A DNA stretch of 64,000 bases. Origin: Octopus vulgaris (Eukaryota). Positions 5,163 through 59,947 of the stretch are shown one piece after another; within the stretch, counting starts at the first letter, position 1; every line of letters begins with the position of its first letter. The notes under the pieces are model-generated. The model made no database searches, was not told where the DNA came from, and saw nothing but the letters and a program-made list of their open reading frames with translations. Location: NCBI GenBank assembly GCA_951406725.2, contig OX597820.1, forward strand, positions 79,732,001 to 79,796,000, read 5' to 3'. Position numbers and translations under genes: made by a program.

Positions 5163-5455
5163 ATATTAAGGAATGGCCCTGATAGGCCATTCGACTCACT
5201 AGAATATCTATTCCTCCTGGCCTCCTTGCCGATGAGACAAGCCAGTGGTAGATTGACTTGATTAAATTAAATTAAATTTAATTAGGCTAGTTTGCCAAAA
5301 GTACGTCGAAACAATGCATTGTCCAAGGATGATTAGGGTAAATGTTTAAATTTTCCTTTGATTTCTGAATTACTACTATTTAGCGGTTTGAGCTTTGGCT
5401 GCTCTTTCTAGTGAGTCGAATGGCCTATCAGGGCCATTCCTTAATATTGTTGAAA
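5163..5455 (+). mobile_element. Miniature PLE-like element with ~42-bp inverted repeats inside (TA)n
   Basis: atattaaggaatggccctgataggccattcgactcactagaa (5163-5204) is inverted at 5406-5447; (TA)n on both sides; internal HHR fold. Confidence 0.75.
5223..5329 (+). ncRNA. Type I hammerhead-like ribozyme, core CCGAUGA (U4C), long stem II loop
   Basis: tccttg-CCGATGA-gac...gtc-GAAA-caatgcattg-TC-caagga: 6-bp stem I, palindromic stem III, GUC site. Confidence 0.75.
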
Positions 5456-6342
5456 TTATATATATATATATATATATATGTATATATATATATATATACA
5501 CACACATATGTATGTGTATTCGCGCGCGCATATTCATATGTTAAATAGCTTATACATATACTAATGGAATACATATTCCGTATATTCCATGTTAGTTTGT
5601 GTTCTGCAGTTCATGCACAGAAACAGAAAGAGTTTGAGACGCAATAGAATTTTACCGGAACTAGTTGACGTGCACGAAGTATGTTACGTCATTTCCGCTT
5701 GTCTCTTTTATTGAAGACTCGTTCATGACGGCTCACTGACAATTTTCAATGAATACTGCTTTTTTTCTGTATATTCCTAACATTCCCTTTCTAATCTTCC
5801 TAAATGTTAACCAAAATATATTGCCTTCACCTTTTATTGATCTATTTTCTTTTCTCAATTTTAATAAATATTTCTTTCTCTTCCGTTACGTCCTTCACTT
5901 TACAAAAACGTTTTCTTCTGATTTCCACGCACACACGCACGCACGCATGCACACACACACACACACACACACACACACACACACACACACACACACACAC
6001 ACACACACATACAAACACACACACACAGAAGATGGCATGTATTAAATGCGTCGACATAACATACATTCCGTATACTTTATATGGATTTGTATCGGAAGAA
6101 CAATTAAATTTTTATTGAAGTTTCTTATATTATTACATCTGCAGATAATTCTATATGGGAAAAGATTTACGATTTATATACATACATTGTTTTAATACTG
6201 TATTGAGATTAAAACAATAAAGACTTCTATATTTTGTTATTGAAGATTTCTCCTAATAATATTTTTAATCATTGGAGATTCTGCGCCATCAAAAAACGGC
6301 GAATCACACATATTTTAAAAGTTAACAATATCCACCACGCGT

Positions 6343-6737
6343 CTAAGTCGTCGAGCTGGCAAAATCTCTAGCACGGCGGGCGAAATGCTTAGCGGTATTT
6401 CGACTGTCTTTACGTTCCGAGTTCAAATGCCGCCGAGGTCGACTTTGCCTTTCATCCTTTCGGGGTCGATAAATTAAGTACCAGTTACGCACTGGGGTCG
6501 ATGTAATCGACTTAATACCTATGTCTGTCCTTGTTTGTCCCCTCTGTGTTTAGCCCCTTGTGGGTAATAAAGAAATAAGTATTTCGTCTGTCTTTACGTT
6601 CCGAGTTAAAATGCCGCGGAGGTCAACTTTACCTTTCATCCTTCCGGGTTTGATAAATTTAGTACCATTTATGTACTAGGGTCGATCTAATCGACTGCCC
6701 CTCTCCCCCGAAATTTCAGCCCTTGCGCCTAGAAAAG
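6343..6737 (+). mobile_element. Dimeric SINE family A
   Basis: Same two-unit layout as 1140-1545; diverged TSD aatatccaccacgc / aatattcatcacgc. Confidence 0.85.
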
Positions 6738-6779
6738 AATATTCATCACGCATATAACTTTAAAAAAAAATCTTTATAT

Positions 6780-7190
6780 TTGATTTAATCATTGGACAAC
6801 GGCCATACTGGGGCACCAGTTTCAAGGGTTTCAGTCGAACAAATCATACCCAGTATTTATCTTCTTTTTTAAAAGTCTGGTACTTATTATATCCGCCCTT
6901 TGTACAGTTATACCGAGTCACTAAGATACGGTGGCGTAAACAGACCAACACCGGTTGTCAAGCGATGGTGCTGGGCAACCACAAAAATCACACACGCGCG
7001 CATAGCCGTATTTTGTCTGTCATTACGTTCTGAGTTCAAATTCCGCCGAGGTCGACTTTGCCTTCCATCGTTTCGGAGTCGATAAATTAAGTACCAGTTA
7101 CGCACTGGGGTCGATGTAATCGACTTAATCCGTTTGTCTGTCCTTGTTTGTCCCCTCTGTGTTTAGCCCCTTGTGGGCAATAAAGAAATA
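6780..7190. mobile_element. SINE family B tail (minus, 6780-7000) abutting a family A unit (plus, 7005-7190)
   Basis: Similarity to other copies in the window. Confidence 0.7.
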
Positions 7191-56289: not shown

Positions 56290-56465
56290 ATCTACCTATC
56301 TATCTATCTATCTATCTATCTATCTATCTATCTATCTATCTATCTATCTATCTATCTATCTATCTATCTATCTATCTATCTATCTATCTATCTATCTATC
56401 TATCTATCTATCTATCTATCTATCTATCTATCTATCTATCTATCTATCTATCTATCTATCTATCA
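56290..56465. repeat. (TATC)n microsatellite
   Basis: Direct reading. Confidence 0.95.
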
Positions 56466-57329
56466 TTTTTCGATGTATGTATTTATGAATCTAATTATCT
56501 ATTTCCAAAGGAAAGAAGTAATTAATTGTAGTATCCTAATTTCAAAAGAAAAATTCCATTTGATTCGTTATGCGTGCATGCACAATATATTGATTATAAG
56601 AAAGTAAAAGGAAACTGAAATTCATAATTTTTTACATCAATTACATTTTTATTCAATTATCTTAAAACATTTCCTTAAAATCTCTTGTTAAAAAAATATG
56701 AAATATATTCACGTCAACATTGAATATAAATTTCATAATTTCTTTTGACGAATACATTTGTATATTTAATAAATTACCATAAGACATAAAAAGAAAAAGA
56801 GTTTGTAGTGATTCTTATTGGTTAATTCTTCACAAGCGCATTGGTCTTTGTTCTGTAATGTAAGATTTTGTAAACCGTTTAATTTTAGCATCATATATCC
56901 TGGTATTTGTTGTGTGTATAAAGATTCTATAAATCGTTCAAATTTAGCATCATGCATATTGCATTACACGACGCATTACGGTGTCTGCAGCGTAGAATTT
57001 TACTATTTTAATTTTAGCGTATATCAGACATGATAGTTTTCCAGCTTTTGTAAAGATGAAGAATTTGGTAAATTGTTTAATCATTGCATAATATAACATG
57101 ATTTTATTTTAGTATCATGCAAATTTAGCCTTATGATTGTTCTGCAGTGTAAAATTTTATATAATATTTTTTTAAAATCTTAGCATATGGCATCATATTT
57201 TGGTTTCTGTAATACAGAATTTTGTTACCCGTAAAATATTTGGCATCACACAACATTGTATCTCTTTTAAGTAGGATTCCTCTTTTAGTATTTACTCATT
57301 TCGGTCATGCTAGAAAGTCCTTTCAACGG

Positions 57330-57768
57330 TTTAATTAATCAAAAGTTGGTTTCATTGCTCTTCATCGAACTCAATTAGACGGCCAGAATGAGGTGCGTCT
57401 TTGAGGTCAAAATTTCCATTTTTGAACTTGGCATACCAATCACGAACGGTTCTTTCCGCTTTGGCACAAATGTCACAGCATAAATGTCACGAGCAGCTTT
57501 TGCGGACTTAGAACCTTGATTAAAAGCAATAAGAAGGCGGTGTCGAAAATGCTCGTTTTCCTTAACTTGACATTCCATTTCAATGATCTGAAAATAAACA
57601 AAAAATTAACTGAAATTAACTAGAAAAAACAAACAAAACAAAACAAAATAGATTCCAAAGTGATTCAAAAATAGAATTCTCGAAAAAAAGAAAAAGATTC
57701 CAAAATTTAAAAATGCAATAAATTTCAAAATTTAAAAAAACGGCGGGAACTTAGTTGCCAACCCAATA
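57330..57768 (-). mobile_element. mariner transposon 5' end (TIR plus N-terminal HTH), truncated
   Basis: TIR tattgggttggcaactaagt; MECQVKENEHFRHRLLIAFNQGSKSAKAARDI then, shifted, ERTVRDWYAKFKNGNFDLKDAPHSGR. Confidence 0.85.
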
Positions 57769-59550
57769 CATACATGTGATTGTTTCTCTCGTCGTAAACG
57801 ACAAATAAAGGGTCAGTAAAATAAAGTGGCAATCATGTTCTATGGACACGAATGTGTCTCTTGAGGCCTGCTGGTGCCTTGCAAACCAGTCGGCAACTAG
57901 AATAAGTTGAGGACTCAGGTTGGTCGAGTGTTTGTGGATCATTTAATATGTGTTTTCTTAAGGGGACAGCAACGCTTGATTTGCTTCGTGCTTTTATGTT
58001 TGTGCGAAGTTGGACCCAATGCTAGAGTCGACTTTGCCCAAATCTTTGAAGCAAGAAGCAGGACTGGAGCCAAAAAATGGGCTGGCGCTTCGTCTAGCGG
58101 AGGATGGAGTGAATATATACGTCACAGAATACGGGAATTCGTTAGAGACCTTTTAGCCTTTTGATTGATATATATATATATATATATATATATATATATA
58201 CATATATATATATATATATATATATATATATATATACATATATATATATGTATGTATGTATGTATGTATATTAATAGTTATCGCCAAACTAATATGGCAG
58301 TCCATAAATATAAGACTAAAGCTGTCGCTGATTAGCTCCAAGAGGCCATCGCCTCTAGCTAGCTATATGAGACACGAACCTGCGTGTTAATTAGCGGTCT
58401 GACACAAAAAGAACGATAGACGTACCACACGTAATATACTTTGTTCAACTAAAATCCTTGAAGACGGTGTTCCATCTTGGCCACCGTCCAACAACAGAAA
58501 CATGTAAAAGATAAAAGATGTATTCATATAAATTTGTAACGAATCTATGAAAATGAATACTGAGAATGTATGGATGTCTCTAATTGCTCAAAAACCAAAG
58601 AGGTTCTTTGCTGTGTCGAAATGTTCTGACTGGCGGTTATAATTATTCTAACATCAAAATACTTTCACGTTAAAACTTGAAATGCATTATTTACAATTAA
58701 TGTTCACGTCTAACCGTATGCATGCATGCATGCATGCATGCATATATGTATGCATGTATGTATGTATGTGTATTTATGTGTGTTTGTGTATGTATGTGTA
58801 TTTATGTGTGTTTGTGTATGTATGTACGTACGTATGTATATATATATATATATGCGTATGTGTATGTATGTATAATTGTGTGTATGTATGTATGCATGCA
58901 TGGATGCATGTATGTATGCATGTATGTATGAATGTATATATGTATGTGTGTGTATGTATGCATGCATGTACAAGCATATATATATATATATATGCTGTGT
59001 GTGTGAGTGTGTGTGTGTACATGTTATCAGCCAACTTTTTATAGAGTCCTTACGATTATGGGGCTTGATATACATACATATAGACGTACATATATATGTA
59101 CGCACGCACACACGCGCACATATATACATATAAATGCATTTTTATGTATATACATATGCACTCACATATGCATGTATATATACATATACATACAAACACA
59201 GATCCACAGAGACAAATACATATATTGACAAAATAAACGCCTTGCCGTGATAAACTATATTTCCTTGTGCCAAAGGACTTCATTAGGGAACATTCTGGGA
59301 GCTGTAAACACAGAGAAAATATAAAATCTGGGTTTTTATTGCAGCAATTAATTTAATATGAGAACCCTAAAACACGTCCATGTTACCAAACGCTTTGGGT
59401 TATTGCATAAAGAATTGGTCATGTATAGAATTGATGTATGACACGTTCCTAGTTTTTGTGTTATTTATATTCGAGGTTGTGATATCATATATATATATAT
59501 ATATATATATATATATATATATATATATATATATATATATATATATATAT

Positions 59551-59947
59551 GTAACAGAAAGAGAGGAATTTCGATTATCCCCATATGGTGAGTTGTAATA
59601 TATATAAGAAATTAAAGAAGGAAAATCTACACACTTTACATAGTTTTAATATAACTTTTAATATATCTTGTACTGTTTTTGTCGACTGGTTTCGCTTTCG
59701 CTATTCATGACATTAAAATTTATTTAAACAAATACTTTCTTAAGAAAGCTTTCGGTCCATGATGTGTGTGAAATTTATGATTTAATGAGTCAAGTAGAAA
59801 ACTAAGGGGAGGTAATTGGTTATCGTTATTATTGTGGGCAGTGCGATAACTGTTCAGTTTGATAGGGGGTGGGGAAATATATATAGATATACACAGAAAA
59901 GTTAGTTATGCTTGCATATTTAGACGCGTTCTGTATTTTTCGATGAA
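59551..59947 (-). mobile_element. Short PLE-like insertion between two (TA)n tracts
   Basis: About 400 bp of unique sequence flanked by (TA)n, carrying an HHR-like fold. Confidence 0.6.
59680..59712 (-). ncRNA. Minimal type I hammerhead-like ribozyme, A3:U8 core
   Basis: tgtc-ATGAATA-gc gaaa gc-GAAA-ccag-TC-gaca; GNRA-capped stem II; GUC site. Confidence 0.72.

Follow-up and report, generated by a model that had tools for sequence, protein, structure and literature searches.

Natural hammerhead ribozyme motifs with G3:C8 and A3:U8 cores in Penelope-like elements of Octopus vulgaris

The stretch of Octopus vulgaris DNA considered here (assembly GCA_951406725.2, contig OX597820.1, positions 79,732,001 to 79,796,000 of the forward strand; 64,000 nucleotides (nt), hereafter the window) is animal-type DNA rich in microsatellites, with several fragments of Penelope-like elements (PLEs) and a set of hammerhead ribozyme motifs (Table 1). 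These motifs are minimal type I hammerheads of PLE pseudo-long terminal repeats (pLTRs), mostly spread as 5'-truncated, often inverted 3' ends, and two of their core types, G3:C8 and A3:U8, are family consensus states, kept in place of C3:G8 together with stems I and II, the GAAA box and a self-complementary stem III. A preliminary description of the window had listed hammerheads with all four Watson-Crick pairs between core positions 3 and 8; every motif named there was found in the sequence, with all four pair types represented. The motifs are called here by the coordinates of that description, which mark the end of stem I'; most lie on the minus strand, those at 5223, 19688 and 42736 on the plus strand. 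They fold as minimal type I three-way junctions, in which the ends close as stem I, followed by stem II and by stem III with A15.1-U16.1 and H17. The listed set is less independent than it appeared, with 14033 and 19688 belonging to one insertion and 42675 and 42736 to another; it includes damaged copies (42675, 42736, 53970 and 49711), and it omitted a U3·G8 motif and a second copy of the 46447 family.

The window is part of a genome of 2.8 Gb in 227 contigs, which was searched as a whole, and matches were tallied by hand from the listed rows except for script-made counts. A descriptor that left positions 3 and 8 free gave nine matches in the window, seven of them Watson-Crick, whereas 100 block-wise dinucleotide shuffles of the window gave on average 2.1 matches and 0.39 Watson-Crick matches, the latter never exceeding 3. 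A comparable descriptor, applied to 464 kb made up of the window and 400 kb sampled at even spacing from the genome, found 32 motifs against about four in reversed and shuffled controls, namely 15 C:G (seven from one tandem array), six U:A, two G:C and nine others. A plus-strand A3:U8 candidate at 29254 was taken as chance, having a weak stem II and no relative among the loci examined.

The G3:C8 motif at 43001 has a G inserted after A9, a stem II of 5 bp, a palindromic AAUAUU stem III and a predicted cut at 43008/43007. A DNA search with it returned 445 candidates, the best with 97-99% identity, and a pattern for its class with positions 3, 7 and 8 left free matched 5,693 times in the genome and not once in the reversed control. 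Among the first 100 of these matches, 93 carry G3:C8, four are mutated (G·U twice, G·G and G·A once each) and three come from related families. Contigs of four public runs (A-D), which were chosen by similarity and say nothing on expression or RNA ends, show no variant of at least 5% at 43036-43043, with a variable loop II. Most copies of the family consist of a short 3' end flanked by (TA)n, in some cases with a tail and frequently with an inverted head-to-head partner; they are 5'-truncated at (TA)n targets and retain the uncut 5' half of the motif. In three longer loci, the end of an open reading frame (ORF) lies about 1 kb upstream of the G3:C8 motif. This frame is open over 223 amino acids (aa) in locus L228, to which L101 is 95% and L227 about 80% identical, and both L228 and L101 match the GIY-YIG domain of Pfam (PF01541). 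Its linker reads CxxxCxxC, not the CxCX5C of Hydra, and comparison by tblastn at 1e-3 of its 3' part (223-238 aa only) with the window's Neptune ORF returned no similarity. In locus L226, a C3:G8 motif that shares this architecture has a related endonuclease upstream of it, with 38-48% identity. A Neptune ORF beside the G3:C8 motif of L208 was rejected as the family's own, as it belongs to a neighbouring element. Upstream of stem I, loci L228, L227, L208, L209 and L199 share a branch-point-like CTAAC, a pyrimidine tract and a CAG 18 nt before the stem-I-closing TCA, which in the window corresponds to about 43064-43075. Most short copies of the family begin at this CAG site; by ungapped extension, an undercount owing to a subfamily indel, the ends of 12 of 34 copies fall 17-20 nt before the TCA. 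Judged from these sequence features, the site may be a splice acceptor or an RNA start.

The A3:U8 motif at 59680, with one change against the ACCGGU stem III of its family (family Y) and a predicted cut at 59684/59683, likewise represents a family state. A DNA search with it gave 687 candidates, and in 35 copies selected by BLAST, position 3 is A in 34 and position 8 is U in all 35; the remaining core (U4, G5, A6, N7 and A9, with G12, A13 and A14) is kept in 33-35 of these copies per position, with A in 21 and U in 14 at position 7, the free hammerhead core position. When positions 3 and 8 were left free, the family pattern matched 139 times (control 0), and 100 of these matches comprise A:U 89, G·U 6, A·A 2 and C·U, A·G and U·U one each, with A·C at 0. 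That G·U exceeds A·C points tentatively to a small wobble lineage, and five of the six G·U copies have alleles in common with an older subfamily. In most linked loci the motif follows a Neptune-like RT-endonuclease (reverse transcriptase-endonuclease) by about 430-560 nt. The G3:C8 and A3:U8 cores are real and not products of decay, and the consensuses, at 93 of the 100 first-listed and 89 of 100 listed matches, do not revert to CUGANGA; their proposed link to PLEs was confirmed as well, both kinds of family sitting behind PLE GIY-YIG ORFs. The decayed AUGACUA core at 49711 recurs in three relatives elsewhere, one of them with an intact stem I; since they came from a pattern fixed on a purine (R) at 3 and a pyrimidine (Y) at 8, they confirm the register and not the pair state. 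A GIY-YIG ORF upstream of the motif was not found for the 49711 family or for family Z, a family treated below.

A change from one purine-3 core to another was met outside the window, in family X, which came to light when motifs with a CCGG stem III were surveyed for R3/Y8 cores (274 matches, control 104). This Neptune-type family gave 114 matches with positions 3 and 8 free and none in the control, and 100 of the 114 comprise 73 A:U, 19 G:C and eight others. Its copies lie about 5% from the consensus, and decay alone predicts about nine mismatched pairs per 100, against eight seen. Fifty copies were fetched (the 19 G:C, the eight others and 23 A:U); the majority states of the two subfamilies differ in eight of 580 columns, four of them near-fixed, and positions 3 and 8 are two of those four. 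The chance of hitting a named pair among four to eight differences is 4e-5 to 2e-4, not allowing for the prior search for such cores. A tree was built without positions 3 and 8 from 28 of the 50 copies, those with 380 or more aligned bases. It unites the A3:U8 copies in a single clade with an ultrafast bootstrap (UFBoot) value of 94, which midpoint rooting tentatively places within a G3:C8 grade. Both subfamilies lie about 350-380 nt behind the endonuclease. In the protein tree, families X and Y are separate Neptune clades of about 55-60% protein identity, in which the purine at position 3 may have a shared or a separate origin.

Other pairings were surveyed across the genome. Within the CCGG-stem-III class with C11.1, a Y3·R8 pattern with a gap of 7-28 matched 6,194 times against 52 in the control; 100 of these matches hold U:A 83 (about nine off-register), C:G 10, U·G 5 and C·A 2, so that U3:A8 outnumbers C3:G8 in this class. 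The R3·R8 pattern (293 against 71) yielded mostly off-register matches to a canonical family and single decays, and the recurrent rows of the Y3·Y8 pattern (74 against 32) look like decayed U:A families; thus, no purine-purine or pyrimidine-pyrimidine family is apparent in the CCGG-stem-III class. Clustering of 311 descriptor matches from the genomic DNA fetched in the study, a sample biased by the study's own earlier searches, gave 16 multi-copy clusters: six C:G, four U:A, one G:C, one A:U, one A:U plus G:C, one mixed and two artefacts. Stems I-III covary between families, and stem III is self-complementary as ACCGGU or AAUAUU. Several candidates were discarded. An apparent purine-purine family arose from a canonical CUGAUGA family matched in the wrong register (three of three fetched copies), as did an apparent G3·U8 family from a U3:A8 family, and a loose AT-rich pattern drowned in chance matches (13,034 against 6,681 in the control). 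A metagenome scan for the architecture of X and Y gave 119 loci which look like chance, with A·C the commonest state (68 of 119), 84 lacking stem I and none matching a PLE endonuclease; the sole AT-rich metagenome candidate runs antisense to the gene of a bacterial enzyme.

Folding predictions bear on how such motifs could act. For natural A3:U8 copies of families X and Y, the lowest-energy predicted homodimer is a double hammerhead with the 7-nt core unpaired, at about -16 kcal/mol, compared with about -8 kcal/mol for two separate monomers, and the predicted monomer of 43001 has stems I and II formed and an open core. The 3:8 pair belongs to the catalytically active hammerhead conformation, and C·A and U·G can take up similar wobble geometry. 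One clean double switch together with the family pattern suggests that the active fold is selected for. In the proposed mechanism, stem III would join two RNAs of the element, or two units within a tandem transcript, into a double hammerhead, and the 3:8 pair would form in the active conformation. A cut after H17 would follow, probably slow and assisted by the element's protein. Such cleavage would trim read-through or tandem transcripts, with the RNA that integrates remaining mostly uncut. Selection would act on a pairable 3·8 rather than on the identity of the pair, and lineages could exchange one Watson-Crick pair for another by way of wobble-like intermediates (G·U, U·G, C·A) that are tolerated and can persist in some lineages. 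On the sequence patterns assembled here, slow, protein-assisted cleavage that trims tandem or read-through transcripts, under selection for pairing and not for a particular pair, is the probable account.

Several results weigh against this account. The motif at 49369 belongs to family Z, an old family related to that of 43001 and with copies 12-26% from the consensus. All 45 matches of family Z (control 0) divide into C·A 17, U:A 13, U·G 10, C:G 2, U·U 2 and A·A 1, so that 30 of 45 copies lack a Watson-Crick pair, in contrast to the 43001, X, Y and U:A families. In a tree built without positions 3 and 8 (24 of 29 copies), six U·G copies form a clade with supports of 99/96 and C·A copies occur over several branches. 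Within the group with a GAAC or GGAC stem III, about half of the copies are C·A; because U:A is almost absent and C:G absent there, this C·A cannot be decay from a Watson-Crick master, and the clustering of the states on the tree therefore means that masters with a non-Watson-Crick 3·8 replicated. Likewise, U4 is changed to C (CCGA) at 5229 in the window and in sublineages of two C3:G8 families, relatives of 29128 and 46447 (L211, L101, L112 and L032). From the states of family Z and the recurrent U4C it follows that 3·8 pairing is favoured, yet not strictly required for amplification. Moreover, the clean double switch in family X is a single event which was found by looking for R3/Y8 cores, the lowest-energy predicted dimer of the tested family X G3:C8 copy pairs part of the core with stem II, and no distinct accumulation of 5'-truncation points marks the predicted cut site of the 43001 family in the 100 of 192 rows that were inspected by hand. 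A 17-locus 'G3:C8' cluster was rejected as the antisense of family X's ORF end, so the descriptor can yield false positives at family level. The notion that positions 3 and 8 change together consequently needs narrowing: it describes the A3:U8/G3:C8 switch of family X, but family Z replicated with C3·A8 and U3·G8. Similarly, non-complementary combinations, which had been expected to be rarer than complementary ones, form no purine-purine or pyrimidine-pyrimidine family in the CCGG class but are the majority in family Z. The reported invariance of G5, A6 and A9 holds in the motifs but is built into their recognition, and U4 is not invariant, as CCGAUGA at 5229 demonstrates. The stem III loops of family Z (GAGC, GGAC or GAAC, partly imposed by the search pattern) are not perfect palindromes and would place G·A or A·A pairs in tandem within a dimer.

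Taken further, these exceptions could mean that the hammerhead is largely dispensable and that positions 3 and 8 drift in master lineages, the Watson-Crick pattern reflecting in part a small number of events and detection biased towards the motif. The C·A and U·G lineages of family Z and the U4C sublineages fit this relaxed constraint, as do the genomic copies with their uncut 5' half, the finding that cleavage of a PLE hammerhead is unnecessary for insertion in vitro (Frangieh et al., 2024; PMC11167929) and the Naiad PLEs, described as thriving without canonical hammerheads (Craig, 2021; PMC8557442). We nevertheless regard it as unlikely, as positions 3 and 8 account for two of the four near-fixed differences in family X, the CCGG class shows no R·R or Y·Y family, the non-Watson-Crick lineage states are all wobble-like and stems I-III covary between families. 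Less probable again is a non-catalytic role that preserves the fold, for instance in RNA dimerisation, in binding of the element's protein or in the marking of a splice or start boundary, for which any pairable 3·8 would serve without cutting. It would agree with the very weak in vitro activity described for PLE minimal hammerheads (PMC4209133), with the anole PLE, for which no read ends at the cut site are reported (PMC11167929), and with the 5' ends of short G3:C8 copies that gather 17-20 nt upstream of the stem-I-closing TCA, at the splice-acceptor-like CAG; against it stand the NUH site and GAAA box retained in every family and the place of the 3:8 pair in the catalytically active conformation, which is established knowledge. 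That the purine-3 motifs are merely decayed canonical hammerheads or chance matches is scarcely credible. Some window copies are indeed decayed and loose patterns give many chance matches, but the family consensus states have zero control matches, they hold a fixed position behind PLE ORFs, and variants above 5% are absent at 43036-43043 in four independent runs; for 43001 and 59680, the family data already refute it.

Published PLE hammerheads provide the closest comparison. The motifs share with those of metazoan PLEs described by Cervera and de la Peña (2014; PMC4209133) the short stem I, the variable stem II, the frequent extra nucleotide after A9, the short palindromic stem III which needs a dimer, the pLTR location and the dispersed truncated copies; cleavage is described there as weak and dimer-dependent. 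For the Penelope of Drosophila virilis, an intron end beside helix I is described (PMC4209133). The same paper gives about 1,300 matches with a U3-A8 core in Schistosoma mansoni. Unlike the examined rows of its representative alignment (Fig. S3), with C or U only at position 3, whole families here are G3:C8 or A3:U8, one family switches between the two, and U3:A8 instead of C3:G8 dominates the CCGG class. Natural 3:8 covariation to U3-A8 and a 2-bp stem II are also on record in Perreault et al. (2011; PMC3088659), whose section on core variation names no purine at position 3 and gives rare single examples, in contrast to the multi-thousand-copy families found here. A C3G/G8C double mutant partly rescues PLE hammerhead cleavage in Frangieh et al. 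(2024; PMC11167929), who describe this cleavage as protein-assisted and dispensable for insertion in vitro, and an engineered G3-C8 hammerhead is mentioned in PMC3884650; these partly active mutants have the same G3:C8 pair which here is natural and amplified by retrotransposition. Weak, dispensable cleavage of this kind is in keeping with the genomic copies, which retain the motif uncut, and with the truncation points of the 43001 family. Rows of the hammerhead ribozyme table in Craig (2021; PMC8557442) show CUGA cores. U3:A8 was already known, and natural purine-3 cores fixed in PLE families appear to be new.

The literature search found no natural G3-C8 or A3-U8 lineages and only engineered G3-C8; the collection of Lünse and colleagues from 2017 lay outside this search and could contain such cores. 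That collection is said to hold about 150,000 representatives of small PLE-associated dimeric hammerhead variants. The present motifs resemble those variants, as summarised in PMC6765202, in their diminished stem III, cleavage as dimers and PLE association. The expectation that conventional searches miss purine-3 cores was supported, as Rfam found no hammerhead: none was among 14 matches on 10 loci, canonical C3:G8 copies included, nor among the 150 of 413 matches listed for the window. Thousands of motifs in this genome escape descriptors that require C3/G8 or Y3/R8, and claims that a PLE clade lacks a hammerhead may therefore need rechecking. Since the active conformation includes the 3:8 pair, its compensatory exchange in nature provides evidence, at the level of sequence, that selection acts on catalysis, and the near-isogenic A3:U8 and G3:C8 subfamilies, together with the C·A, U·G and U:A subfamilies, are ready natural constructs for relating rate to pair. 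A further-reaching proposition, held tentatively and with slightly more doubt than belief, is that purine-3 PLE hammerheads might be undescribed active natural ribozymes, that their lineages might have crossed all four Watson-Crick 3:8 states via wobble intermediates, giving direct evolutionary evidence for catalytic selection in vivo, and that CUGANGA-based censuses might miss a large share of animal hammerheads.

Table 1. Hammerhead motifs and the Neptune-like reading frame in the window (window coordinates).
Feature	Positions	Strand	Position 3	Remarks
C3:G8 hammerhead with U4C (CCGAUGA)	5223..5329	plus	5229	long stem II insert, palindromic stem III
U3:A8 hammerhead, irregular stem II	14033..14077	minus	14071	3' end of the window's Neptune-type PLE
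Neptune-like PLE ORF, 561-aa open frame	16247..17932	minus		reverse transcriptase PF00078, CxxxxCxxC linker, GIY-YIG-type end
U3:A8 hammerhead, inverted identical copy of 14033	19688..19732	plus	19694	other end of the same insertion, not independent
C3:G8 hammerhead, long stem II	20234..20313	minus	20310	descriptor match
C3:G8 hammerhead, long stem II	25853..25930	minus	25926	descriptor match
C3:G8 hammerhead	29130..29162	minus	29159	upstream of GIY-YIG-like ORF fragment 27775-28458
U3:A8 hammerhead	29600..29635	minus	29632	879 nt downstream of Neptune-like endonuclease fragment 30512-30664
C3:G8 pair, head-to-head	42675..42796	both	42730 (minus), 42741 (plus)	one insertion; intact GAAA missing in both
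G3:C8 minimal type I hammerhead	43001..43050	minus	43043	C8 at 43038; short 3'-end copy of young, abundant PLE family
C3:G8 hammerhead of young family	46447..46484	minus	46480	second, inverted copy with position 3 at 47406 (plus), absent from the preliminary description
U3·G8 wobble-core hammerhead	49334..49372	minus	49369	old family Z, related to 43001 family; absent from the preliminary description
A3:U8 hammerhead, decayed, AUGACUA	49711..49753	minus	49749	stem I decayed
C3:G8 hammerhead related to 29128	53970..54004	minus	54001	U16.1 lost
A3:U8 minimal hammerhead	59680..59712	minus	59708	2-bp stem II; 3' end of Neptune-type PLE family Y

The Neptune-type PLE at 14033-19732 is a recent insertion, because the 456-nt inverted repeat between its two terminal motifs is 100% complementary. 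Upstream of its 561-aa RT-endonuclease frame, further frames in other registers lie at 17802-18425 and 18365-19165, and the irregular stem II of its U3:A8 hammerhead is a family feature (L108, L110). A second, fragmented PLE occupies 27775-29162 on the minus strand, where the GIY-YIG-like frame at 27775-28458 differs from the Neptune ORF and the C3:G8 hammerhead lies upstream. Near-perfect long inverted repeats were also noted at 43375-44301 (366 nt, 99%) and 46610-47277 (289 nt, 96%), the latter between both hammerheads of the 46447 family. Elsewhere in the genome, a retrozyme-like tandem array with units of about 359 nt (G000:C1:20002278-20004542, L091) bears a canonical C3:G8 type I hammerhead per unit, in both orientations. 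Besides, a minus-strand frame at 11519-12082 with a CxxC...H...C motif, which has no Pfam match, presumably resembles the C-terminus of a non-LTR (long terminal repeat) retrotransposon ORF.

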